Source: Candidatus Melainabacteria bacterium GWF2_37_15
GTDB taxonomy: Bacteria > Cyanobacteriota > Vampirovibrionia > Gastranaerophilales > UBA9971
Assembly: GCA_001784565.1 (NCBI GenBank)
Contig: MFRL01000086.1
Span: 1-62,195 of the forward strand
Direction: 5' to 3'
DNA length: 62,195 bases
Made by a program: the position numbers and the translations under genes. This document shows positions 924-56,900 of this stretch, piece after piece. Positions within the stretch are counted from its first letter, which is position 1, and every line of letters starts with the position of its first letter. Below the pieces are notes generated by a model. It made no database searches. It was given only the letters and a program-made list of their open reading frames with translations, and was not told the DNA's origin.

Positions 924-3892
924 TTTTTTTCATTGCCCCCCTTGATTTCCTCTTCCAGCTCTGGTTTCAGCAGAACCGCTTTCTTAAAATACTTCTCCGC
1001 CTCTGCGGGCCTGTTATTTTTATTATATATAACACCCATAAAGTAATAATAATAAGGATTATTCTCATCTATGTATTTTACATTCTGGAGATACTTTGCT
1101 GATTCAAGGTAATCATGCTTTGCAATCCTCACTTTAGCTAAATCCAGCCAGATTAAAGACTGCATTGGATTAGAGGAGAGCGCTTTTTTGAGTAATTTTT
1201 CCGCTTCCTCAAATTTCCCTTTATTTGCCAGAATAATACCAAGGTTGTAAATTACATCACTATTATTTTTATCCAGAGTAAGTATTTTTTGGAAATATTC
1301 GTATGATTTTTTAGTATTACCCAGATACCCGTGCAATTTAGCCAGTGAGGTTAAGGCATCAACATTTTGGGGAAACTTATCCACGGCCTGCTGATAATAA
1401 TTTTCAGCTAATTTGTTATTTCCACTAATAAAATAAATATTTCCCAACCCAATAAGTGCCTTTACCCTGTTTTGGTCAAGCAACAATGCCTTATCATAAC
1501 ACTTTCTTGCTGATTCGAACTGGTCAACTTCATAGTATACTTCCCCCAACAGTTCACTCAAATAAGCTTCATTATTTGTATACACCAGTTTACTTAATAT
1601 ATCAGAAGCAATATCCAACTCTCCTTTAATTACATAATACTGTGCTTCGTAATACTTGCTCATCACGGGATCTTCCCGGAATTCCTTGACCTTTAGCCAG
1701 TAATCATAAGATTTAAACTTTTTCCAGAAGTCCTTATTTTTTATATTAAATTTTTTCGCCTGTAAATTTACACTGTTTAAAGTTAATTGAGCAGGGCGAA
1801 TTTTATTTTCAGCAGAAAATATATTTACTGCTTCAAGCCTGTAGGTAAGGTTTTCCTGATTTATGCTCATTGCTATACTTATTTCATTTTCGGCCTCTTG
1901 ATATTTTTTAAGTTCCTTATATGCTTTTGCTCTTAAATAATGAATATAATCGTATCCCCTCAGGTTGTTTGTTACTTCAATAACCATTTCAGGCTGATCT
2001 TTGTAGGTCAGCAGGTAAAAAGCTGTAACCTGGACATTTTCCAGCTTATCCGGCACAGAATTTCTGGGGAAATACAGTCTGTTAAGCTCATAAATCATTG
2101 TGCCCCAGATTTCTTCACTTTTTATTTCATTTAAAACCTCTGAAGCAAAATTTAAATAACTCATATTTATTAATTTAAGCGCCAGCTTCATTTTTGCGAA
2201 ATCGTCATTATTATCTATAGTTTTATGAAATTCTTTTAAATCCTTAAGAGCATCTTCTGTATTTCCCCGCGTGAAATTATAAAACGCAGCCTTTACTTCG
2301 TCCCGCGTCTCCTCGTTATTAGGCAGTTCAATCATATGAATGTCACTATCAACAGGGCTTGGCCTGTTTATAACTACATTTATTAAGTTATCATCACCAT
2401 AAGACTTTTCCTGATTCAAACTAATCTTAACTTCAGGCCTGTTCTTCATCTCAGTAACAACCGGGCTTGAGGCATTGAGGATTTCAATATCAATTTGTGA
2501 AAACCCGGGAACAATATTTAAAGCCATTTCTGTTTTTGCGGAAATATCATTCATGGAACTTTCTGTTATAGCAAGGTGCAGTGGAGTAAAATTCTTGTAA
2601 GGGAAGCTGGGATCAAGGTTTTCCCATCTACCAACAAAAGCCTTAACCCACATATGATACACAAAGGCGTTTTCGGGAGTATTGGTATAAACAAGCCCGA
2701 CCACTACTTTTGCAGGAATGCCTGCTGCTCTTAATATAGAAGCAAGCAATACAGAATGCTCTGTGCAGTCCCCGCTCCCTGTTTCCAGTACCTGCACGGC
2801 ATTTGCAAAGTCAACACCAAGATTTTTATTGGTTATATTATCATAAACCCACCTTTCGGCTTTTAGAGCAAGCTTAAGGGCATCTGTTTCACCCTCGCTT
2901 AGTTTCTGGGCTACCTCCTTAACTTTTGGGCTGTCTGTAATGATATAGGGGCCTGATTTCAGGTACTCTTCATATTCCCTAGTGTCAAAAGGATAGGGGA
3001 ATTCATTGCTGTAATGCTTCTGGGCTTTTACTTTTATGTAAGCTGTATTGTCCTGCACCTGAAAAACATTTTGCGTTTCATCACTAATAAAAATAGTTTC
3101 CACAGGCACATCATAGGAAGTAATCTTGTAAATAGCCTGCTCAACTGTTTCCGGCGAATTTATAACCCTGTCGACCTTAATTACACTTTGCGGGAATACG
3201 TTATAATCGCTCCTTATGTTCAGCACGTCTTTTTCATCTGCTGCAACCTGTTCTATATCCATTATTGATGAGGTTGACTTCATTTCCCTGCCGTTACTAT
3301 CTCGCCATTCGTACATTTCAGCATTAGGGAATATATTCACATCAAGCTTGTATTTTTTATGTTCACCTTTTTCATTTTTAATTTCATTTGCCTTAATTTT
3401 GAGGAATACAGTGCTCATGCCAGGCTCTATTGTGTTATACTGTATAATTCCGTCTTTTGATTCCTTATAAAGCTTATCTATAGCGTATGGAAACAAAATA
3501 TTTTCCTGAATATCAATGGTTTTTACGTCTTTAACAGAATTTATATTGGAATTTATAACAATTTCCTTATTTGCCCAGTCGAATTTGCCTTTAACACTAA
3601 CATCCTCGCCCGGATTTTTGGATTCAAACGAGAACTCCAGGGGCTTTCCGGTTTCATCTTCAACAAAAGCCTGATCCTGTATGATTTCTATATTGTCATT
3701 TTCACGTTTAAATCGCTGTTCAATGTGTATTTCAGTAATAATGTTTGAATTATTCTTTCTCTGTCGCTCATTAATAAAGCCAATATCCACGCCTTTAGAC
3801 TTAAGAAGGTAGTATTGCTCGTGTAATATTTCAGAATCTTCGGCAAAAACAGCATAATTTACAATGCAGGAAAGGAAAAGAACAAACGTCAT
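920..3892 (-). CDS. Transglutaminase-like domain protein with N-terminal signal/anchor and C-terminal TPR repeats
   Basis: The Cys-His-Asp core is [22 protein letters not shown]...YHMWVKAF...NLDPS. The C-terminal ~350 aa are TPR-like (YYxxG.. repeats). The ORF stays open to 3982, but codons upstream of M31 (3892) are encoded by a repeat element, so the start is ambiguous. Confidence 0.75.
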
Positions 3893-3957
3893 TGCGAGGA
3901 GGGCTGAAAGCCCGACGTGGCAATCTGTCCATCTTGGGATTTTAACACCCACCCTAT
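3888..3957. repeat. Copy of the palindromic repeat family (gtcattgcgaggagg / gggctgaaagccc / gacgtggcaatctg / cacccaccctat)
   Basis: It is the reverse-complement homologue of 36311-36350 (cagattgccacgttggag...cctcctcgcaatgac), and it ends like the B module (cccaccctat). Confidence 0.5.
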
Positions 3958-4088
3958 TAAATTGATCGTATATTGATTGCATTCCAGTATTATTAAGATT
4001 ATTTAAATTTAATATTTAATAATAACAATTTTTAAACTTTATTCATTTTATATTATATAGGTTAATAAGTCAGGAAAGGAAGATAAAA

Positions 4089-4493
4089 ATGAATATTCTT
4101 AAATTTTTTAGATCGCCAACTATGAGAAAACTTGATAAACAAGTTGAACAGGAAGTTAAAAGAGATTTGCCTGGAATTTTGAACAAACAAGCAGTAACAA
4201 AACAAGCAAATTTACAGCAAAAATTTGATGAATTAGGACAAAATTTAACATCTGATGAAAGAGATGTATTAAATAATGAAATCTCTGAAATTATGAAATT
4301 TCATTTAAATAATCCTGAAGTCCATGGGCTGGCGAAAAAGCAACTCCAGAAACCGGAAGATCTTGCAAGACAATTTGCATACGAAGATATAATACAAAAT
4401 CATCGACAAATACTAAAAGACCATGCAGAACAACAAGGCAGAGATAACATCAAGGAACTTATGAAAAAAGCCGGAATATGGAAAGGTAATTGA
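4089..4493 (+). CDS. Hypothetical protein (134 aa, charged, helical-looking)
   Basis: Clean ORF with an AGGAAAGGAAG purine-rich stretch upstream of the ATG. I recognise no family motif. Confidence 0.5.
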   Translation: MNILKFFRSPTMRKLDKQVEQEVKRDLPGILNKQAVTKQANLQQKFDELGQNLTSDERDVLNNEISEIMKFHLNNPEVHGLAKKQLQKPEDLARQFAYEDIIQNHRQILKDHAEQQGRDNIKELMKKAGIWKGN

Positions 4494-40201: not shown

Positions 40202-40274
40202 AGCCGGCAACGGGATTCGAACCCACGACCTGCGGTTTACGAAACCGCTGCTCTACCTGCTGAGCTATGCCGGC
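40202..40274 (-). tRNA. tRNA-Thr (anticodon CGU)
   Basis: The reverse complement is GCCGGCATAGCTCAGCAGGTAGAGCAGCGGTTTCGTAAACCGCAGGTCGTGGGTTCGAATCCCGTTGCCGGCT. It has anticodon loop TTCGTAA and a 7-bp acceptor stem. Confidence 0.88.
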
Positions 40275-42426: not shown

Positions 42427-43638
42427 ATGAAGTTTTTTGACTTTTTCAAAAACCAGAAATCAAAGCCCGCAAAGCGTTATTACAAAGAAGCTCCTAAAAC
42501 ATTAGGGCAGGAGCTGGCAAAACGCGAAAACCTTGACCTTAACCTCATTATGGGATATCTTCCCGACCCGGACGAAATACTTACTAATTCTGGCAGGGAT
42601 ATTGGGACTTATCGGGAATTAATGATAGATTCCCAGGTGCGGGCGTGTGTGAATTCAAGAAAAGCCGGCACATTGAGTCTCTTGTGGGAAATTGACAGGG
42701 GAAAGGTTAAGTCAAGACAGGCTAAACTTATACAAGACCTATACAGTGACCTTGATATTGATGCTTTGAACTCGGCGATATTAAATGCGCCGATGTTCGG
42801 ATTCCAGCCAATTGAAATTATCTGGGAAAAAGTAGGGAAATATATCCTCCCTGTTGATCTTTTACCTAAAAATCAGGAGTGGTTTTTGTTTGACAAAGAC
42901 GGAAAACTCAGGCTTTCAACCCTTAATAACTGCATAAGCGGTGAAGAATTACCGGAGAGGAAGTTTTTAACACCTACATACAACGACATACACAATAAAA
43001 ACTACAACCCATACGGCGACAGGGTATTGAGTTCGTGTTTCTGGCCGGTGACATTCAAGAAATCCGGTTTTAAATGGTGGGTTACATTTACTGAGAAGTA
43101 TGGAATGCCTTATATAATCGGAAAACTGCCGCGGCACACCATGGATTCCGAGCGGGAAAGTATGAAAGACCAGCTTGAAGCAATGGTAAAGGATGCGGTT
43201 GCTGTTATTTCCGATGATGCGAAGCTGGAATTTATTGAGCCGGGTGAAAAAAGCTCGAGGTCGGATTTATATGAAAATTTAATAAATGCGTGTGATCATG
43301 CGATATCTAAGGCTGTATTGGGTCAAACACTCACCACTGACGGCAACCAGGGCGGAGCTGGCTCTTATGCGTTAGGGAAAGTTCACGCAGGAGTAAGGGA
43401 AGATATTGTTTATTCAGACAAAAAGATAGTTGAGAGAGCGCATAACCAGTTAATCAGGTGGATATGGGAGATTAATTTTAATTATGGCGAGATACCCAAG
43501 TTTTCTATGTTTGCAGAGGAAGAGGTTAACAAGGCTCTTGCTGAGCGGGATGAGATACTTGTTAAGCAAGGTATTAAGTTTTCTAAATCTTATTACATTA
43601 CGAATTATGGATTGTCAGATAGGGATTTTGAAATATGA
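42427..43638 (+). CDS. Portal protein (Mu gp29 / DUF935-like)
   Basis: GGAG lies upstream of the ATG. The call rests on FKKSGFKWWVTFTEKYGMPYIIGK and position after the terminase. Confidence 0.8.
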   Translation: MKFFDFFKNQKSKPAKRYYKEAPKTLGQELAKRENLDLNLIMGYLPDPDEILTNSGRDIGTYRELMIDSQVRACVNSRKAGTLSLLWEIDRGKVKSRQAKLIQDLYSDLDIDALNSAILNAPMFGFQPIEIIWEKVGKYILPVDLLPKNQEWFLFDKDGKLRLSTLNNCISGEELPERKFLTPTYNDIHNKNYNPYGDRVLSSCFWPVTFKKSGFKWWVTFTEKYGMPYIIGKLPRHTMDSERESMKDQLEAMVKDAVAVISDDAKLEFIEPGEKSSRSDLYENLINACDHAISKAVLGQTLTTDGNQGGAGSYALGKVHAGVREDIVYSDKKIVERAHNQLIRWIWEINFNYGEIPKFSMFAEEEVNKALAERDEILVKQGIKFSKSYYITNYGLSDRDFEI

Positions 43639-43775: not shown

Positions 43776-44351
43776 TTATGCTTTTGGGGTTTTTGAATCT
43801 TTTATTGCCTGATAACCTAATAATCCGGCAAGTGCCACGCCTGTACCAATTATGGCGAACTTTGTCTGCTTAAGTACACCATTTATAACAGCTTTTCCAA
43901 ACCCTTTTTTATTTAGAACATCAAGGTTATCTGTAGCGTTTTCACCTATTTTAGCTAGTTTTGAAACCTGCTTTTCCACTTCTTTAGGCAAGCCTTTTAC
44001 CTTGGTTAATGGAGTTAATGCTGCTTCTGCATCATCTCTTATTGCAGTACCCATAATTTTAGGTAGAAGATCGTATTTTTGACCAACAATTTTCGATAAA
44101 GAATCCTTAGCCTGTCCTAATGCTTCTTTTAACTGTTCAGCACCTTGTTTTGGCAATTCTTTTATAATTTTCTCTATTTTTTTTAAATAACTCTTGGGGA
44201 CAGCCTTTGAAGAGTTTAAATAGATATCGGCTGCGAATCCAACTGTACCACCTGTCGCCATAGCCGTATTAAAATTAGTGCCAAAGCTTTTTTTGCTTTC
44301 CTGTTGTGGTGTTGGCTGTGTGACAGATGGAATTGAATTAATTGTTGTCAT
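43776..44351 (-). CDS. Hypothetical tail-anchored membrane protein (reverse-strand cargo)
   Basis: The protein has a helical body and a single C-terminal TM segment (FAIIGTGVALAGLLGY). Confidence 0.5.
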   Translation of the reverse strand: MTTINSIPSVTQPTPQQESKKSFGTNFNTAMATGGTVGFAADIYLNSSKAVPKSYLKKIEKIIKELPKQGAEQLKEALGQAKDSLSKIVGQKYDLLPKIMGTAIRDDAEAALTPLTKVKGLPKEVEKQVSKLAKIGENATDNLDVLNKKGFGKAVINGVLKQTKFAIIGTGVALAGLLGYQAIKDSKTPKA

Positions 44352-44441: not shown

Positions 44442-44855
44442 TTACCAGTCATCATTGTGATAGGCGTCTATTGCAGAATGAATATGGTGAACAGGGCCGG
44501 CAACCCACATTATAACGGATGAAAGCAGTGGAATTTTTGAGGCTTTCCTATAGATTGATTTAAAATATTCCTGCCTAAAACCATTTTCCGCAATATCTTT
44601 AACAATATCTTTTAAATTAACTTTAATATCTTTGGAAATTTTCTTTCCGAGGGCAAGATGAACCGCCAATAAACCGCCCCAGGTTCCTATATCAATTAAT
44701 GCTTTTTCATTTTCACCTTTTATAAATTGTCCTGATCCCGGAATAATAAGCGAAGCAATAGCAGCCTCGGGGTATGTTTCAGGTTTTTTATCTGTGGCTT
44801 TAAAAGCAACTATATGTGGTTGTATTGCTGAGGAAACAGCACTAACGGTTAACAT
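44442..44855 (-). CDS. Hypothetical membrane protein (reverse-strand cargo)
   Basis: It has the IIPGSGQFIKGE motif followed by a TM helix, and a second hydrophobic segment near the C-terminus. Confidence 0.5.
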   Translation of the reverse strand: MLTVSAVSSAIQPHIVAFKATDKKPETYPEAAIASLIIPGSGQFIKGENEKALIDIGTWGGLLAVHLALGKKISKDIKVNLKDIVKDIAENGFRQEYFKSIYRKASKIPLLSSVIMWVAGPVHHIHSAIDAYHNDDW

Positions 44856-49080: not shown

Positions 49081-49536
49081 ATTCCTGAATCTATTATAAT
49101 TTTTGGGTGTTCAGAAAGGATTTTGCAAATAGAAAAGCAGGTTCCTGAGCTTTTGGAAAGACATAATACCCTAGGGCTTAATGCGTTCCCTCTCTATTAT
49201 AAGACCGACTACTGGCTATGGATAAACAATGCTAAATTCGGTAACTGTGTTTATAAAAGGGAAAATACGATTTATAAGCCATATTTTCCCTTAGAATCTA
49301 ATGTAGGGTTAACAAAAACATCTATGAGCGCATCTTTTGCATTAGATTTTGCAGTAAAAATGGGTTATGAAAAGGCAATATTATATGGCATTCTGGATGG
49401 GGAACCTAATTCATACAAGCATTTTTATGATCAAGTAGATAAACCTTCTAATATAAAAAATTTACAGCAGCTTAAGGCAAGAATTGATAGCCACAGAGAT
49501 AAAATTGAGATTGAGATTCCGTTTGGGGCAATATAG
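49081..49536 (+). CDS. Hypothetical protein, weakly MptE/DUF115-like; probable non-ATG start
   Basis: The track ORF starts at TTG 49123, but the frame is open from 49066. A perfect AGGAGG (49067-49072) lies 8 nt before an in-frame ATT (49081). TSMSASFALDFAVKMGYEKAILYGILDGE resembles the C-terminal core of DUF115-type proteins. Confidence 0.35.
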   Translation: MPESIIIFGCSERILQIEKQVPELLERHNTLGLNAFPLYYKTDYWLWINNAKFGNCVYKRENTIYKPYFPLESNVGLTKTSMSASFALDFAVKMGYEKAILYGILDGEPNSYKHFYDQVDKPSNIKNLQQLKARIDSHRDKIEIEIPFGAI

Positions 49537-50667: not shown

Positions 50668-51042
50668 ATGACAGCTACATTTAATTATCAATACAAAAGA
50701 GCCTATCAGATCAGCTCGTGCTGGAATACCATCATTGATGAAGTGTATTCAGGAGGCGAGCAGCGCCGCAATATGTGGACAAATGCCAAAAAAAAGTGGG
50801 TGCTGGAATTTGATAAAAACCAAACTGACTCCAACGCCATAATGGCGTTTTTTAATGCAAGAAAAGGCCGCTATGAGGCATTCTATTGGACGTGGCAGGC
50901 AACGCATTCAATAACAGGAGAAAACATGGGTGGAGATAACCAGCAATACACGGTCAGATTTGACCATGATGAGCTGAATTTTGAACATCTTGCACTTGGA
51001 TATAACAAGTTTCAGGTGACGCTTGTGGAGGTGAATGGGTGA
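50668..51042 (+). CDS. Distal tail protein (lambda gpM / RcGTA g12, DUF2460-like)
   Basis: The call rests on SGGEQRRNMW....KKW.L.F.......I..FFNARKGRYEAFYWT and position after the TMP (ATG directly follows the TMP stop). Confidence 0.6.
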   Translation: MTATFNYQYKRAYQISSCWNTIIDEVYSGGEQRRNMWTNAKKKWVLEFDKNQTDSNAIMAFFNARKGRYEAFYWTWQATHSITGENMGGDNQQYTVRFDHDELNFEHLALGYNKFQVTLVEVNG

Positions 51043-51458
51043 TGAGTTATATCCGTGAAGAAGTTGTGGGAATGGGACGAGATGAGTATCAAAAAATTCA
51101 AGAGGTTACAAAATTTTTTAAAAAACATGTGGCAAAAGTTGGCGAAAAACAAGCCATCAAAGACTTACAAAAAGCAATAAATATGTTAAACAAAGGGAGG
51201 AAGGATTCTTTGATTGAAGAAAAGCGTCCTTTAAAAGAAGACGGCATATTAGGAGAAAAAACCTATGCTTCTTTCGGCTATATATGTAAAAATTACACTG
51301 CAAGGCTCATAAATAAATTTATCAGAAGAGCAGCGATTAATAATACCATTTTTGAAACTAAAAATGATAAGACTATAAACACCGAGAAAAACATAAATAA
51401 AATCTATAACAATTTAAGAACCCAACAAGAGGAAATGGCATTATGGATGAAAAAATAA
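51042..51458 (+). CDS. Hypothetical protein with putative peptidoglycan-binding-like segment
   Basis: LQKAIN...LKEDGILGEKTYASF resembles the DG-i-G-x-T signature of PG_binding domains. Its ATG overlaps the preceding TGA (TGATG). Confidence 0.4.
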   Translation: MSYIREEVVGMGRDEYQKIQEVTKFFKKHVAKVGEKQAIKDLQKAINMLNKGRKDSLIEEKRPLKEDGILGEKTYASFGYICKNYTARLINKFIRRAAINNTIFETKNDKTINTEKNINKIYNNLRTQQEEMALWMKK

Positions 51459-52150
51459 TTGAAAAATATATTTGGGGGTCAAGCGACAATGCCTGTGCTG
51501 CTTGCGGTGAATTAGATGAAAAAGAATTTAAGACAATTGAGGAAATTCCTGATAAGCCACACCCGAATTGTAAATGTATTTTAAGGGAAGTAGAGGGGGA
51601 GGTGTGCGACTACTGCATAGAGTGTTTAGATAAAATGGAAGAGATGATCGGCGATGCGGAAAGCCTGAAATTTGAAGTTGAAATTGAAATTAACGATATA
51701 GAAAGGATAGAGGAAGAGTATTCGGGGATTGATTTAGATGATGTAGTGAGGTTGTTAAATGATATACGCAGTTTAATTAATCCTTTTTATACACTTTCAA
51801 GGACTATAGGAATTTTTATTTCTAATTATTTTGCTCTTCTTGAAGCACAAGAGCAAGGGCTTGGAGGAACTGATAAATATTATCATGCAAAGGCTAATTG
51901 CGAAGCAGCGCAAAAAGGAATTTTAGGTTCTAAAATAGCAGAAGGGTTGAGTAATTTAAAAGAACTTGCTGATTATTATGATAATCTTTATGTAGAGAAA
52001 AAGACATTAGAAGAAACTTTAAAAGACTCAGATGAAGATCAAGAAGCAAATAGGGAAGGAAGAGATCTAGGGAGAAAATATCCGACGAAAAGCCCTGGTG
52101 AACTGTTAAAACATAGAAGACCAGATAAATTAAAGGAGAAATATTGGTAG
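51443..52150 (+). CDS. MuF/SPP1-gp7 terminal zinc-ribbon motif fused to a serum amyloid A-like domain
   Basis: The N-terminus reads SSDNACAACGELDEKEF..IPDKPHPNCKC. The C-terminus reads GTDKYYHAKANCEAAQKG...DSDEDQEANREGRDLG...HRRPDKLKEKYW, which aligns by eye with vertebrate SAA (GSDKYFHARGNYDAAKRG...DSLADQAANEWGRSG...HFRPAGLPEKY). Confidence 0.7.
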   Translation: MDEKIIEKYIWGSSDNACAACGELDEKEFKTIEEIPDKPHPNCKCILREVEGEVCDYCIECLDKMEEMIGDAESLKFEVEIEINDIERIEEEYSGIDLDDVVRLLNDIRSLINPFYTLSRTIGIFISNYFALLEAQEQGLGGTDKYYHAKANCEAAQKGILGSKIAEGLSNLKELADYYDNLYVEKKTLEETLKDSDEDQEANREGRDLGRKYPTKSPGELLKHRRPDKLKEKYW

Positions 52151-52171
52151 TTGGCATGCTATGATTGCGTT

Positions 52172-52546
52172 ATGAAAAATTTTTTTATAGCATTTTTTAT
52201 AATTTTAAAAACTTGCTTGTGCTTGTTTTTTACTTTCTTTGCAGGATATTTTAGTTCAATAATAGCAGTTAGTTTAATAGTAAGACCTGAAAAGTTTGAT
52301 TGGCAGGTATTTCTATACTTAATAGTATCTGTATCTTTGATAACTGGCATTTGGGCGATATTATTTACTAAGACAAAAATTTATATCAAAATAATATATT
52401 TAATATTATTTACTTTGTATTTTCAGTTACACTTTTATCGTCCTGATTTTTTACCATCTGTAATAAAACAATTTGATTTTGTGGATTGTGCAGAAATGGG
52501 TGGGGTTTGGGACTACACAGAAGATAAATGTATAATAAAAGACTAA
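52172..52546 (+). CDS. Small polytopic membrane protein (3-4 TM) with C-terminal Cys pair
   Basis: The protein starts MKNFFIAFFIILKTCLCLFF and ends CAEMGGVWDYTEDKC. I preferred the ATG at 52172 over the TTG at 52151. Confidence 0.5.
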   Translation: MKNFFIAFFIILKTCLCLFFTFFAGYFSSIIAVSLIVRPEKFDWQVFLYLIVSVSLITGIWAILFTKTKIYIKIIYLILFTLYFQLHFYRPDFLPSVIKQFDFVDCAEMGGVWDYTEDKCIIKD

Positions 52547-52548
52547 AA

Positions 52549-52662
52549 GATCAGGAAGCTAATTGAGAAGGACGGGATTTGGGGAGAAAATATCCGACTG
52601 GAAGTTGCGGGGATATACTCAAGCATAGAAGACCCGACAAATTAAAAAAGAAATATTGGTAA
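52549..52662 (+). pseudogene. Decayed duplicate of the last 37 codons of the SAA-like gene
   Basis: DQEAN*EGRDLGRKYPTGSCGDILKHRRPDKLKKKYW* compares with DQEANREGRDLGRKYPTKSPGELLKHRRPDKLKEKYW* at 52037-52150. About three quarters of the nucleotides are identical by my count, and TGA replaces AGG. Confidence 0.7.
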
Positions 52663-52694
52663 AATGAATCTAAAATTATAATATAATTACATAT

Positions 52695-52928
52695 ATGAAA
52701 ATATTTTTAATCCTATTATGTTTAATTTTAGCACTGTTAACAGTTATTGTGATTTTCTTAGAATCTTACTGGTTTAATGATAAAGATTATTGTCTTGATA
52801 CCGGGAGATGTACTGAAGGCCTAGAAATAAATACAGAGCACGGAAGAATAATAATCAACAAGGAAAATTGCTTGAAATATAAATGGAAATGGGACGAAAA
52901 AAGAAGAGATTGTAATATAAGGCATTAA
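52695..52928 (+). CDS. Small single-pass membrane protein (77 aa) with Cys-rich ectodomain
   Basis: It has the TM segment MKIFLILLCLILALLTVIVIFL and ends CLKYKWKWDEKRRDC, echoing the C-terminus of the 52172 protein. No clear RBS is present. Confidence 0.45.
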   Translation: MKIFLILLCLILALLTVIVIFLESYWFNDKDYCLDTGRCTEGLEINTEHGRIIINKENCLKYKWKWDEKRRDCNIRH

Positions 52929-52962
52929 AATCAGTATTTAAAGTTAAATAAGGAAATTTTTT

Positions 52963-53592
52963 ATGTCAAAAGGTTTAGACAGCAATCAAAAAATTGAGAT
53001 TGCTGCAAGTGAAGTTAAAACGCGTATATTGTTGACTATAACTATTAACAATGCTACCCGGGATGTAATAAAAATAATAGAAAACGATACACTTTCCAGC
53101 TTTGAGTATGGCGAGAATACCTACATCGCCGCTATGGTAAAAAGGGGTCAGATCGAAAGCAGGATGGAGGGCGGCCCACAAAAGGTTAATATAAAAATCA
53201 GCAACATTAACCAGGCTTATAGCAGCATTATTGCTAATGAAGGAGACGTTCTTACAAATTCAATATGTGTTATTGAGGAAGTTATATTTGATAATCTAAA
53301 TAACATTGTTGGCGATTCTGTCAATATTTTTGAAGGTTTTGTTAATAATATCCAACTCACAGAAACGGAGTTCTCTTTTGATGTGGAAAGGATATTAGGC
53401 GGGTATTCAACTCAGAGCCCTAATACAACCTATGATGTCAACTGTCAGTGGGTTTTCAAGGATTCAAGATGTCAGTATTCAGGCGGAGAAACTACGTGTG
53501 ATAAAACTTTTACTTCATGCCAGGCAAGAAGTAATGAAATAAGGTTTGGCGGGTATCCAAGTATCCCTCAGGAGCTTGTGATTAAGGGATGA
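52963..53592 (+). CDS. Tail tip protein (lambda gpL / RcGTA g13, DUF2163-like) with C-terminal four-Cys cluster
   Basis: The C-terminus reads CQWVFKDSRCQYSGGETTCDKTFTSCQARSNEIRFGGYPSIP, matching the family's Cys4 plus FGG-P ending. Confidence 0.7.
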   Translation: MSKGLDSNQKIEIAASEVKTRILLTITINNATRDVIKIIENDTLSSFEYGENTYIAAMVKRGQIESRMEGGPQKVNIKISNINQAYSSIIANEGDVLTNSICVIEEVIFDNLNNIVGDSVNIFEGFVNNIQLTETEFSFDVERILGGYSTQSPNTTYDVNCQWVFKDSRCQYSGGETTCDKTFTSCQARSNEIRFGGYPSIPQELVIKG

Positions 53593-53921
53593 ACATAAAC
53601 ATTTTATTCCAAAATATAGGCAGTATTGACGAAAAACTTGACTGCCTGTATCCGGTTTATTTGCTTTATCCTGAAATCCCAAAGTATGAATTTATTTATG
53701 ATGAAGAATATTTTACTCCACTGATTAAAAGGCATTTTAGGGAAATAGAAGAATTTAATGCCGGGGATTTATTGGTTTTTAAACTGTTAAACAGTTTTCA
53801 TTTCGGCATATATGCAGGAAATGGAAACTTTTTCCATTGCTGTAAAAAGCATAAACTAAGAATATCAAGACTTTCAGGTTACAAAAAATACTTAAAGGGT
53901 TGTTATAAATGGCACAATTAA
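53589..53921 (+). CDS. NlpC/P60-like tail tip protein (lambda gpK / RcGTA g14-like), short
   Basis: It has LDCLYPV (candidate catalytic Cys) and AGDLLVFK....FHFGIYAGNGNFFHC. An ATGA overlap couples it to the gpL-like gene. Confidence 0.55.
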   Translation: MNINILFQNIGSIDEKLDCLYPVYLLYPEIPKYEFIYDEEYFTPLIKRHFREIEEFNAGDLLVFKLLNSFHFGIYAGNGNFFHCCKKHKLRISRLSGYKKYLKGCYKWHN

Positions 53922-56900
53922 TAATTGGAGCAATAGCAACAATAGGCAGCGCTATAGCAGGAGCATCAGCAACTGTAGCTACTTTTGCCGCTGCTGCAGG
54001 AGCTGTTCGAGTTGTAGCTCTTGTGTACACAGTTATCGACGCACTTACTAACAAGCAAACTAGCCCTATAGATGGCGGAGAGGCTAGCCCTACCTATACA
54101 TTCGGGAAATTACAGACCCAGGTGTCAAACCTGCTACCCCGTCCAATAATTTATGGACAAGTAAAAGCTGCAGGAAATAAAATATGGCAAACAGGCGAAA
54201 ACACATCTAGTATCAGGCAAATTGTGTGTTTTTGTGACGGTGAAATAAGCAGCATAAGTTCTGTAAAACTTAATGATGAAGATATATCAAGTCTTTCAGG
54301 GTGTTCTTATACTGCTTATTATGGAAATGGAACACAAAGCATAGATTCGAGTATTCCGGGAGCAACGCAGGAAAATAAAGCAGCAGTAGTTGGCGGGCTA
54401 AAGTATGATGCTTATCTTGCTATAACTGCTCAGGCCTCTAAAACTCTCTCCAATTCAGGTTTTAATGTAACCTGTATTATTGAAGGCAGGAAAATCAGGA
54501 TTTACAGCAATATATCAACCTACGGCGTGCAATACAGCAATAATCCGGCCTGGTGCATACTGGACTTTTTAACCTGTTATAACGGAGTAGGGCTTTCTCA
54601 CGGTGAAATAGATATACAAAGTTTTATTGATGCTGCTATATACTGCGATACTCTCGTGGACGGACAAAAAAGATTTACTCTTAATCTTGTTCTTGATGCT
54701 AAGCAGTCACGTCTTGACTGGCTAAATGCCATGTTGCTTGTTTGCAGGGGTTACATACTGTATCAGGACGGGAAAATACATCTTAAAATAGACCAGTCCG
54801 GCACTAGTGTTCAGAGTTTTGACGGTTCAAATATTATAGCCGGTTCTGAAAAATTCTGGACAACTCCGAGGGAAAATAAGTATGACATAATTAAAGTCCA
54901 GTTCATTGACCCTGAAAATGAATATGCACGTGTTTATGCGGTTGCTGAATTACCTGCCTATGGCAATGAACAGCCCCTTGTTAAAACAGTTGAAGCTTTT
55001 GGAATCACTAATTTTAAACAAGCGTCCAGGCTGGCCTGGTTTTACCTCAATGAATCCGCTACTACAAATAAATTTATATCTTTTAGCACTACAAAAGAAG
55101 GGCTTGACAGAACTGTCGGGGATATTATTGATGTAAGTTCAACCATAATGGGCTATTCTGCAAAGCTTTTTCGTATTATTGCAATGAATGAATTGCAAGA
55201 AGGCCAGATTGAAGTTACTTGCAAAGAATATAATGAAAACTTATACAATGATACTCAGGGCAGTGTTGCTCCTAGTATTGATGTAATAGCCGGTACAAAC
55301 ACTTTTGATACTGCTGTTACTGATATTACATTACAGGGAAATACTGACAACGACCAAACCAGGGTCTTACAAAAATTAATTGATAATCTTGCTGCACAGG
55401 CAGGAGGAACTCTTAATGTTGACGCAAAGGAAAGCGGGGTTTATATTAATGCTTCCCTTAACGTTAAATCTAATGTGCATGTTAACTTTAAATGCCCTGT
55501 TTTTCTCGGGCAATATGGACAAATAAGAATATATGGCGGATTTGCAGAAACTCCTTCTGAGAATTTGCCTCAAATTCGCGCTGATTTAACAATAGGCACA
55601 AAAACCATATACTGCGGAACAGGCGCTGAATCCCTTGCAAGTAGTTATTCTGTAGGGGACAGAATAATCATAAGAGGATTGTCCGATGGGAACGGTGAAG
55701 CTGTAGAATATCAGGAGGCAATTGTAGCCAGCGTTGATGTTGGCAATAATAACATTACAATTGAGGAAGACCTTGAATACAATTTTAAAGCAGAATATCC
55801 GACGGGGGATTATGAAGAGAATTTCAGCGTTGTTGACAGGACATATATAACTTTTCAAACCTTCACAACTCTTTCCGCCAATGCCAACCGCGGCAATACT
55901 TCAATCACGGTAGCTAACGCTACTAATTTCACAATCGGAGATTATATCTTTTTTGGAGATGATAAAACTCCGTCTGACATTACTGGAACTTCAACAAATA
56001 CTTTTCGGCATGAAGTCAATAAAATTATTAATATCACTGACACTACTATAAATCTTGAAAATGCCCTGTGTCATGATTATGAAACGTCTTATAAAGCTTA
56101 CATTGTCAAAATGAATATGGTGGAAAATGCCAGTATTAGAGGTGCTAAAGTCAATTATACTGCTGAACCTTATACTTTTACAATAAATGCATTTGTCATA
56201 GCTTATGCAAAAGATTGCTGGATTCAGGATTGCGTTGTTGAAAACGAAGGGGCTTATACAAGCAAAGGCCATGGTTTTAGAATAGATAGAGCCATTAATT
56301 GCCATACATATAACTGTGCTATTTATCCTCCGGGATACACTGGTGCAGCGGAAGGATACGGATTTACCTTTTATAGAAGCAATCATTGTTCTCATAACAA
56401 TGCTTATGCAAGAGGCTGCAGGCATTCATTCCTGGCATTCAGAGGTGCAAGCCATAACAGGTTTAATAATGTTATTTCAGTAAACTGCCGTAAGTCTGAT
56501 ATTGATTTCCATGGCGGCGATGAATACGGCAATGTTGTGGATGGTTTCACTATTGTTGGCGGGGATCAAATAATTGATTCACACATAGAGGCCATAAAAT
56601 TTGGTAATGAATCACATGTAACAGGTTCTTGCAATAATGTTGTAAGAAATGGTATAATTACAAATTATAAAGGTTATGGTGTTAGTTTTGTTCCTATTTC
56701 CAACAATAATGTTGTTGAGAACGTTACTTTTAAAAATATTAATCAACTAATAAGATGTGTGGACTTAAGCGCTGATGGAACTCTTTCTGCTTGTAATAAT
56801 ATCGTTCGGAATTGTATTATTGATACAGTTACAGCCGACCTTGGATATATTGATTCTACTGCTAATGGTGGTTCTTCCCAGATTATTGATGGGCTGATAA

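Follow-up and report, generated by a model that had tools for sequence, protein, structure and literature searches.

The Lipocone superfamily was described by Burroughs, Nicastro and Aravind (eLife 2025; PMC12419801), who recognised the prokaryotic serum amyloid A (prok-SAA) domain as a tip of polymorphic toxins and the MuF domain as a delivery module. The system composed of prok-SAA, MuF and the immunity protein Imm-SAA is already described computationally in that work. Bacterial SAA-like domains had been taken as uncharacterised by an earlier sequence-only reading of the DNA studied here, a statement that is now out of date. This DNA is a stretch of 62,195 nucleotides from Candidatus Melainabacteria bacterium GWF2_37_15 (assembly GCA_001784565.1, contig MFRL01000086.1, positions 1 to 62,195 of the forward strand), the whole of which is called the window below. 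It contains a phage-like element with a cassette of four genes (g1 to g4) in its tail-tip operon, of which g2 encodes the SAA-like protein. Morons are found in the late operons of tailed phages, such as lom and bor of lambda. We consider it likely that the cassette is a moron encoding a polymorphic toxin and its immunity, which would be expressed late, released by lysis, and act on periplasmic lipid-linked head groups of non-immune relatives; the immunity protein cognate to this toxin would be g3, and g4 would be an orphan. New here are the insertion into a tail operon, the split and truncated carrier, an immunity variant with two Cys residues, the record of a tip displacement, and a large, mostly non-phage expansion of the family in the Gastranaerophilales (gut Melainabacteria).

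The source data of the Lipocone study list the contexts as 'Prok-SAA: T6SS, MuF, TM+[TM+TM+]Imm-SAA', where T6SS is the type VI secretion system and TM a transmembrane segment. MuF with a C-terminal prok-SAA domain was found in 19 cases, and Imm-SAA was encoded downstream in 14. Imm-SAA (immunity class iii) has four absolutely conserved Cys residues, and is composed of an α-helix and four β-strands. The inferred ancestral active site includes a His in helix H2, a Glu in H3 and an Asp in H4; the SAA-Wnt (SAW) clade also has an sNxxGR motif, and a short fifth helix distinguishes the SAA families. For prok-SAA, the authors predicted an enzyme acting on the phosphate-linked head groups of lipids. 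Among the Lipocone toxins, bench work has been done only on TelC, from the TelC-TipC pair of Streptococcus intermedius, which is exported by the type VII system via an LXG domain; it removes phosphate from lipid II as a phosphatase and has no activity inside the cytoplasm (PMC12419801). The main text of the study mentions neither Melainabacteria nor a tail-operon location, and its supplementary text gave no match to 'Melainabacteria' or 'Gastranaerophil'.

The toxins carried by MuF were surveyed by Jamet et al. 2017 (PMC5576092). The MuF domain family was described there as a portal-associated, capsid-packaged protein; the MuF toxin genes are by definition those that come immediately after the portal gene within the packaging module, and prophages hold 96% of them. 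The domain was defined in that survey by PF04233, PF06152 or the MuF3/MuF4 profiles, and was compared here by Pfam PF04233.

The SAA domain of g2

The gene g2 (51443..52150, + strand) encodes 235 aa, and three parts can be distinguished in its product. Residues 1-56 (51443..51610) form a Cys/His zinc-ribbon corresponding to the C-terminal end of Phage_Mu_F (PF04233, PHROG 115); residues 56-137 (51608..51853) form a long helical linker followed by the Lipocone helix H1, with helices at 56-93, 99-109 and 112-137 in the AlphaFold2 (AF2) model; and residues 136-235 (51848..52150) form the predicted prok-SAA (Lipocone) toxin domain, as indicated by Pfam, a PDB profile search and Foldseek. The linker is also the length-variable part in the family alignment of 46 homologues. 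Neither a hydrophobic or TM segment nor a signal peptide was found in g2.

The SAA-like C-terminus proposed by the sequence-only reading was borne out. Residues 136-234 matched the Pfam SAA family PF00277 with E=7.8e-12 (45.9 bits, gathering cutoff 30.8), and the same family was matched by all 46 homologues (best E=4.8e-25). The profile built from these homologues recovered SAA chains from the PDB with E=1.5e-17. The seven best Foldseek matches of the AF2 model (mean predicted local distance difference test score, pLDDT, 87.6) were all SAA structures, including human SAA1 and mouse SAA3, with TM-scores of 0.72-0.79 (on target) and 4ip8_A as the best match. Besides the helix at 112-137, the model has helices at 144-156, 160-184 and 189-212 and a short one at 218-221; this layout corresponds to the four-helix Lipocone core and short fifth helix as defined in PMC12419801. 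The putative catalytic residues are His148 (51884-51886), Glu174 (51962-51964) and Asp199 (52037-52039). These three residues and G206 are invariant across the 46 homologues, and residues 202-207 read A-N-R-E-G-R, which fits the sNxxGR motif of the SAW clade. Profile and model comparisons together identify the C-terminus of g2 as a true SAA domain with intact predicted Lipocone catalytic residues. A lipid-active role, also raised by the sequence-only reading, agrees with the published Lipocone analysis (PMC12419801).

The SAA fold alone might also point to a non-enzymatic protein, namely a helical bundle that binds lipid or retinoid in a structural or carrier role, with the small membrane proteins of the cassette as receptors. 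Lipids and retinol are ligands of the vertebrate SAA (one of the structures matched by fold is PDB 6py0), and catalysis has not been shown for any member of the SAA family. The (near-)invariance of the inferred catalytic His, Glu and Asp and of ANxxGR in 46 divergent homologues is against such a role, and so are the displacement of a toxin tip at this locus and the hydrolase tips on the same carrier in other genomes (both described below). A purely binding function is thus highly improbable.

The MuF zinc-ribbon of g2

The candidate zinc ligands in the N-terminal part of g2 are C18, C21, H40, C43 and C45, plus the conserved C55; among these, C18, H40, C43, C45 and C55 are invariant in the 46 homologues. 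In the AF2 model, strands 5-13 and 45-52 flank a short helix. The MuF motif claimed for g2 by the sequence-only reading held for the family, but not for g2 taken alone. Its own match to PF04233 was weak (E=0.33) and covered only profile positions 69-111 of 112; a match to PHROG 115 'minor head protein' was obtained with E=7e-5. PF04233 was matched at E<=0.01 by 19 of the 46 homologues, and the long-form homologue P0040 spans profile positions 3-111 at 33.4 bits (cutoff 29.6). Judged from these alignments, g2 keeps only the zinc-ribbon end, i.e. the last third, of the MuF domain; whereas the longer homologues have the whole domain.

The Pfam family PF25310 'VG15 protein' also matches the zinc-ribbon region in 11 of the 46 homologues, with the best E=2.9e-5 at residues 104-174 of P0016.

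Insertion of the cassette between the Dit and hub genes

Upstream of the cassette is a Dit-like gene of the DUF2460 family, similar to g12 of RcGTA (124 aa, 50668..51042, + strand; Pfam PF09343, E=3.7e-14). Downstream is a gpL-like hub gene with Gp84_N and BR0599 domains, similar to g13 of RcGTA (209 aa, 52963..53592, + strand; PF09931 E=4.8e-5, PF05100 E=2.2e-4, PF09356 E=2.3e-4, PHROG 778 E=2.5e-11). The hub gene is followed by an NlpC/P60 peptidase gene and then by the gene of a 1299-aa Phage-tail_3 protein. The RcGTA-type order from g12 to g15 is present (PF09343, PF09931/PF09356, PF00877, PF13550), with the cassette interrupting the first two. The cassette itself is composed of g1 (139 aa, 51039..51458), g2, g3 (131 aa, TTG start, 52151..52546), a remnant of a displaced toxin 3' end (52547..52661) and g4 (77 aa, 52695..52928), all on the + strand. 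The gene callers start g1 at the ATG at 51042, which gives 138 aa. The junctions given by the sequence-only reading were confirmed with its coordinates: TGATG at 51040-51044 forms the overlap of the Dit stop and the g1 start, and the open reading frames (ORFs) of g1 and g2 overlap by 16 nt. The peptides quoted by it are also present (DGILGEKT, SSDNACAACGELDEKEF..IPDKPHPNCKC, DKYYHAKANCEAAQKG, DSDEDQEANREGRDLG and HRRPDKLKEKYW).

The proposal that a cargo cassette splits the Dit-hub pair could be checked in two IMG/VR contigs, L093 and L094, whose hub proteins share 68% and 60% identity, respectively, with that of the window. In both contigs the stop codon of a 124-aa DUF2460 gene overlaps the start codon of the hub gene, with no cassette between them, and the cassette of the window is therefore an insertion. 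The DNA of the Dit gene is 74% identical to L093 up to position 51032, where the backbone homology ends, and the homology picks up again at 53014. The cassette DNA is matched instead by a non-phage locus (L013), over 51045-52178 (77.6%), 52547-52665 and 52777-52930. The GC content is 27-33% in the cassette and 39-47% in the flanking tail genes.

In the relatives the hub gene begins with a stop/start overlap (TAATGAG.., TCATGAG..), which in the window has become the beginning of g1 (TGATGAG..), and the first codons of g1 read MS-YIREE in the window and MTSQESYTREE in L013. At the right junction (52929..52962, + strand) is a short new spacer with a Shine-Dalgarno-like AAGGAAA before the hub ATG; this 34-nt leader has no counterpart in L093 and L094. 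Inside the cassette, the + strand has no terminator-like site, and promoter-like sites were no more numerous than in shuffled sequence. The simplest reading is therefore that the cassette and the tail operon are transcribed together.

The hub protein of the window is also shorter than those of the relatives (209 aa vs 234 aa; 6001-6705 in L093). In the relatives, the middle of the protein has an additional acidic, Leu-rich stretch of about 25 aa, which is absent from the window hub.

The immunity genes and the toxin-tip remnant

The two small genes after g2 had been predicted to encode membrane proteins, and this was supported by about three hydrophobic segments in g3 and one in g4. The gene g3 starts immediately after the g2 stop, with no base between them. 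Its product ends in a C-terminal hairpin with two Cys residues (C-AEMGGV-WD-YTEDK-C), and has only the last two Cys, i.e. the second half, of the four-Cys Imm-SAA domain. The product of g4 has a single N-terminal TM anchor and a four-Cys domain of the Imm-SAA type (C33, C39, C59, C73); the four residues are invariant in 7 homologues and conserved in the set derived from the loci. It matched the four-Cys hidden Markov model (HMM) with E=1.2e-25, and its homologues lie 0-60 nt 3' of the toxins in most loci. The AF2 model of g4 (pLDDT 84.7) shows a TM helix followed by a small β-rich domain with one short helix (strands 38-40, 44-47 and 50-53, helix 56-61, strands 65-67 and 72-74). In secondary-structure content this is similar to the helix and four strands of Imm-SAA; no fold match to the g4 domain was found in the PDB. 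In DNA, the 3' half of g4 is 75-81% identical to the immunity genes of L013, L014 and L025. The Cys motif shared by g3 and g4 is C-x6-W-[DN]-x5-C; the narrower version of the sequence-only reading, with [GK]-x-W-D, fits g3 but does not fit g4 exactly.

The linkage between toxins and small membrane ORFs was surveyed by searching HMMs, built from the small ORFs after g2 homologues, against six-frame ORFs of 92 fetched loci and the window (1.03 Mb). A membrane-anchored Cys-domain ORF was located downstream on the same strand in 62 of 85 distinct full-length toxin genes, and within 100 nt in 60. Conversely, 90 of the 91 Cys-domain TM ORFs stand 3' of a toxin gene or fragment. The linkage of SAA-like genes with small membrane ORFs was thus found in other genomes. 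The expectation that these membrane proteins are immunity-type partners agrees with such numbers; however, g3 and g4 are not equal protection genes. The gene g3 directly follows g2 and probably encodes its cognate immunity protein.

The gap of 148 nt between g3 and g4, which had been passed over as plain intergenic DNA, contains a dead toxin 3' end. The stretch 52547-52661 is a 115-nt direct repeat of 52035-52149, with 77% identity. Its translation runs ..KDQEAN, then a stop, EGRDLGRKYPTGSCGDILKHRRPDKLKKKYW and a second stop, the first being an in-frame TGA within the ANxEGR motif; the family HMM matched the 31-aa stretch with E=2.5e-10. In sequence type the remnant is nearer to the toxin of L013, with 76% identity to its 3' end, and the immunity gene of L013 resembles g4. 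Because this remnant lies in the gap, g4 looks like the orphan immunity gene of a displaced toxin tip. On this reading, a new tip and its immunity gene (the 3' end of g2 and g3) displaced an older tip and left the remnant and g4 behind. Similar fragments are found in L014, L068 and L079. In L014, whose toxin is 71% identical, the order is toxin, 3TM+2Cys gene, fragment, two 3TM+4Cys genes and fragment.

That array of L014 lies at 1900-4460, with SAA fragments of 45 aa and 35 aa, and is a fuller version of the tip-displacement record in the window. The alternative that g3 is a decayed 3TM+4Cys gene was rejected, as the 3TM+2Cys form was found in at least five other loci. It stands after the toxins in L014, L046, L051, L068 and L081, and by this recurrence it is a class of its own, not the result of a single decay; a further 24 g3-like ORFs are located 3' of SAA genes. 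A toxin subfamily of about 375 aa (370-380 aa, full MuF; L037, L041, L044-L047, L050-L056, L058-L061 and L067) mostly has no detectable same-strand Cys-domain ORF 3' of the toxin, and some divergent members then have multi-TM ORFs without Cys domains. L046 and L051 do have a 3TM+2Cys gene after the toxin.

The properties of g3 and g4 also bear on whether g2 might act in or at the membrane of its own producer, late in a conflict between phages or between phage and host. It would, for example, block superinfection, or help lysis by depleting lipid II, with g3 and g4 tuning or delaying it. Some tailed phages do encode intracellular Min-Wnt Lipocones, for which a role in limiting superinfection was suggested (Burroughs et al., PMC12419801), g2 has no signal peptide, and late expression is expected for a gene near the NlpC/P60 and M15 lysis or penetration enzymes. 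The disulfide-type Cys domains on TM anchors, however, imply that the toxin is met outside the cytoplasm (PMC12419801); the displaced tips and orphan immunity genes are a signature of inter-strain competition and not of a lysis aid; and the family is mostly outside phages. An action on the producer itself is very unlikely.

The carrier segment g1

The product of g1 is predicted to be helical and soluble, and no TM segment was found in it. The sequence-only reading called it similar to peptidoglycan (PG)-binding proteins. The assignment as a PG-binding protein was rejected, as PG_binding_1 was matched by only 2 of 20 g1 homologues (best E=0.011) and the g1 profile had no match among PDB sequences. 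Homologues of g1 are located 5' of short-form toxins in about 20 loci, and an exhaustive HMMER search of 1.84 billion representatives gave only 76 clusters. The g1 domain is fused to the MuF zinc-ribbon and a tip in four proteins: P0115 (PG_binding_1, g1 domain, zinc-ribbon, SAA), P0123 (g1 domain, zinc-ribbon, SAA), P0097 (g1 domain, zinc-ribbon, unknown tip) and P0137 (g1 domain, zinc-ribbon, and a tip weakly similar to endolysins, PHROG 7, E=2.8e-4). From these fusions, g1 is assigned as a carrier segment that has become a separate ORF. In P0094, three LysM domains and PG_binding_1 precede a PG_binding_3 match that overlaps the g1-like region, followed by a full MuF domain; the g1-like region also overlaps a PG_binding_3 match in P0137, and these overlaps give indirect support for PG binding. 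P0054 has the N-terminal part of MuF, the zinc-ribbon and a Peptidase_M15_3 tip. Judged by these domain architectures, the carrier bears several alternative tips, and the alternative tips that can be identified are cell-wall enzymes.

A run of seven A at 51449-51455 lies beside the g1 stop. A programmed -1 frameshift between g1 and g2 was considered and rejected; L013 does not conserve the run (gataaaata), ATGA or an adjacent stop and start is used at other loci, and the g2 ATG has a Shine-Dalgarno sequence, GAGG, before it. Ordinary translational coupling of g1 and g2 is the simpler reading.

Distribution of the family

When one genome for each GTDB species was scanned by pattern, 238 loci were found, of which 80 were kept. 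Nearly all of the kept loci are in metagenome-assembled genomes of Melainabacteria/Gastranaerophilales of animal-gut origin, which often hold two or more copies. Within 6 kb of these 80 loci, no homologue of a tail gene of the window was found, and a tblastn search of g2 against 50,697 records of sequenced phages gave no match. An identical g2 protein in the same tail context is present in two other metagenome assemblies. Nine distinct contexts were inspected at the gene level, and seven had no phage structural genes within 6-8 kb. Phage structural genes are nearby in the window and L010; whereas L003, L005, L008, L013, L095, L096 and L097 are chromosomal or on integrative islands. For example, L013 and L097 have a cassette of g1, g2 and an immunity gene beside a resolvase gene, with a primase-helicase and an integrase also in L097; the same three genes are on islands with resolvase, integrase and primase in L097 and L098. 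By these contexts, the MuF-tagged toxins of the Gastranaerophilales are mostly outside phages.

The phage-like gut contig L010 (1-10200; also L011 and L012) has an array of DUF6973 and phospholipase-like genes, each paired with a small reverse-strand ORF. Beside the array are a g1-like gene, an SAA toxin gene and two 3TM+4Cys genes, with capsid and terminase genes near; the region looks like a multi-toxin island.

The distribution has to be weighed with the location of the cassette, which might suggest that g2, alone or together with g1, belongs to the particle. In that case the MuF zinc-ribbon would dock to the portal or the tail tip, and g2 would be ejected into the periplasm of the recipient, where it aids penetration or conditions the envelope; g3 and g4 would protect the producer or lysogen. 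Such a role is favoured by the position of the cassette within the tail-tip operon and its translational coupling to the Dit gene, by the portal-associated, capsid-packaged nature of the MuF family (PMC5576092), and by the Mu-type portal gene, which has no MuF gene after it, so that g2 has the only MuF-like sequence of the element; moreover, the alternative tips identified on the carrier (M15 peptidase, endolysin-like) are cell-wall enzymes without exception. However, the close relatives of the tail module (L093, L094) do without the cassette, seven of the nine contexts lack phage structural genes, and the g1, g2 and immunity gene cassette occurs at 73% identity on a non-phage island (L013). 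In addition, g2 retains only the last third of the MuF domain, and a penetration enzyme would need neither polymorphic tips nor orphan immunity genes. A particle component is rather unlikely, and the comparisons lean against a tail-structural role for the cassette. The ejected effector on a virion-associated carrier, as suggested by the sequence-only reading, is likewise unproven.

Proposed mechanism

In the reading preferred here, a toxin-immunity moron, g1 to g4 would be transcribed with the late tail operon, with g1 translationally coupled to the Dit gene and g2 to g1. Having no signal peptide, g2 would exit the producer upon element-driven lysis, or possibly in or on a particle, and would act at the periplasmic membrane face of a non-immune neighbour. 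There, by analogy with TelC, it may cleave phosphate-linked head groups off lipid carriers such as lipid II. The g3 protein, with three TM segments and the two-Cys hairpin, would neutralise g2 at the outer face of the membrane. The g4 protein, with one TM segment and the four-Cys Imm-SAA domain, may be retained against an older tip of the L013 type, whose 3' end would have been displaced by recombination. As a carrier piece that is now an ORF of its own, g1 may bind the envelope.

Several points weigh against this mechanism. The toxicity, substrate and site of action of g2, its release route and the pairing of immunity proteins with tips are all inferred, and so is the immunity function; the prok-SAA toxins are known computationally only. 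The main weakness is that the immunity genes are in a late operon without an evident promoter of their own; whereas the protection of kin would need expression in uninduced cells. The MuF match of g2 itself is not significant in Pfam. About a quarter of the family, mainly the subfamily of about 375 aa, has no detected Cys-domain partner.

The surrounding phage-like element

The genes of the element, which has a head of the Mu type and a tail tip of the RcGTA type, form a cluster of about 18 kb (40.3-58.5 kb), which starts just after a tRNA-Thr gene (40202-40274) and has only structural and lysis genes. The small and large terminase genes come first, followed by a Mu-type portal gene (42427-43638; PF06074, E=3e-94) and two reverse-strand ORFs at 43776-44351 (191 aa) and 44442-44855 (137 aa). 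These two ORFs, which lie between the portal and head protease genes, had no Pfam or PHROG match. The genes of the head protease, decoration protein and major capsid protein are next, then those of Mu Gp36 and Gp37, the major tail protein, the tail chaperone and a 202-aa tape measure. The tail-tip genes, including the cassette, and an M15 endolysin gene complete the order, and host-like genes follow the element. No integrase gene, no replication genes and no MuF/gp30 gene after the portal were found in the element. It is either a gene transfer agent (GTA)-like element or a defective prophage; its gene content is only suggestive of a GTA, a particle that packages random host DNA and is unable to transfer its complete own genome.

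The Mu-type portal without a MuF gene of its own is the starting point for a further reading, in which the element would be a delivery particle for MuF-tagged cell-envelope toxins. The g2 protein, and perhaps the many chromosomal MuF-SAA toxins of the Gastranaerophilales, which lack a signal peptide and a phage nearby, would be loaded via the zinc-ribbon and injected into the periplasm of neighbours, and the GTA-like particle would be a head-bearing, protein-delivering counterpart of the tailocin. We regard this reading as decidedly unlikely.

Other genes of the element were also noted. The 1299-aa host-specificity protein (53909-57808) combines Phage-tail_3 with a domain like the K1-capsule-lyase 'Rider' (PF24149, 26.1 bits, cutoff 27), which suggests a polysaccharide-degrading receptor-binding part. 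An ORF at 49123-49536, between the major tail protein and tail chaperone genes, is kept in L093 (2698-3288) and has no family match. Past the endolysin, probably where the element ends on the right, is an ORF for a HicB-like antitoxin or Arc-like protein (59155-59529; PHROG 497, E=1e-16).

Comparison with known systems

The locus is most similar to the MuF/prok-SAA systems of PMC12419801. They have in common the C-terminal prok-SAA domain, the His/Glu/Asp site, sNxxGR, the MuF-type N-terminus, the downstream TM-anchored four-Cys protein with one or three TM segments, the lack of a toxin signal peptide, and toxin fragments beside immunity genes. However, the MuF domain in the window is reduced to the zinc-ribbon, and g1, a segment of the carrier, stands as an ORF of its own; right after the toxin comes a gene with a two-Cys half-domain and not a four-Cys one; and the cassette is inside a tail-tip operon. 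The locus is a compact test set, with an intact toxin (candidate residues H148, E174 and D199), its probable cognate g3, and the orphan g4 with a remnant that dates it.

The MuF toxins of Jamet et al. share with g2 an N-terminal sequence of the MuF family, which is only probable for g2, a variable C-terminal toxin, the phage-like element, and a small ORF (<150 aa) after the toxin (g3 131 aa, g4 77 aa). In contrast to them, g2 is located between the Dit and hub genes, about 7.4 kb past the end of the portal gene, most members of its family are outside phages, and g2 alone is below the Pfam MuF threshold. Such mostly non-phage MuF-tagged toxins depart from the textbook MuF picture, and raise the question of how a toxin without a signal is released.

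The TelC-TipC pair resembles the mode of action predicted for g2 and its partners in that a soluble Lipocone toxin acts outside the cytoplasm and membrane-associated immunity is placed at the outer face, and TelC provides the template for a mechanism of lipid II head-group cleavage. However, TelC belongs to the ClaspCone-CapCone-TelC clade and g2 to SAA-Wnt, the fold of TipC is unrelated, and no match between g2 and TelC was seen at the sequence level.

The vertebrate SAA proteins (PDB 4ip8, 6py0) have the same fold as the g2 tip, with 24-29% identity over about 120 aligned columns and the common motifs DKY[FY]HA and DQxANxxGR. In animals, SAA is a secreted acute-phase protein that stands alone, lacking both a carrier module and an immunity partner; whereas g2 has an additional N-terminal zinc-ribbon and a long helical linker. 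The prok-SAA toxins are the proposed bacterial ancestors of vertebrate SAA, and an activity on lipid II or other lipid head groups, if true, would bear on the function of animal SAA.

The cassette resembles the morons of tailed phages as a compositionally distinct, self-contained block between conserved structural genes, which it does not disrupt. It differs from them in having no detectable promoter or terminator of its own, and in having taken over the translational coupling of the displaced downstream gene. These features suggest that, by taking over such a stop-start coupling, a polymorphic toxin module is able to insert where a tail operon is most conserved and leave it unbroken.

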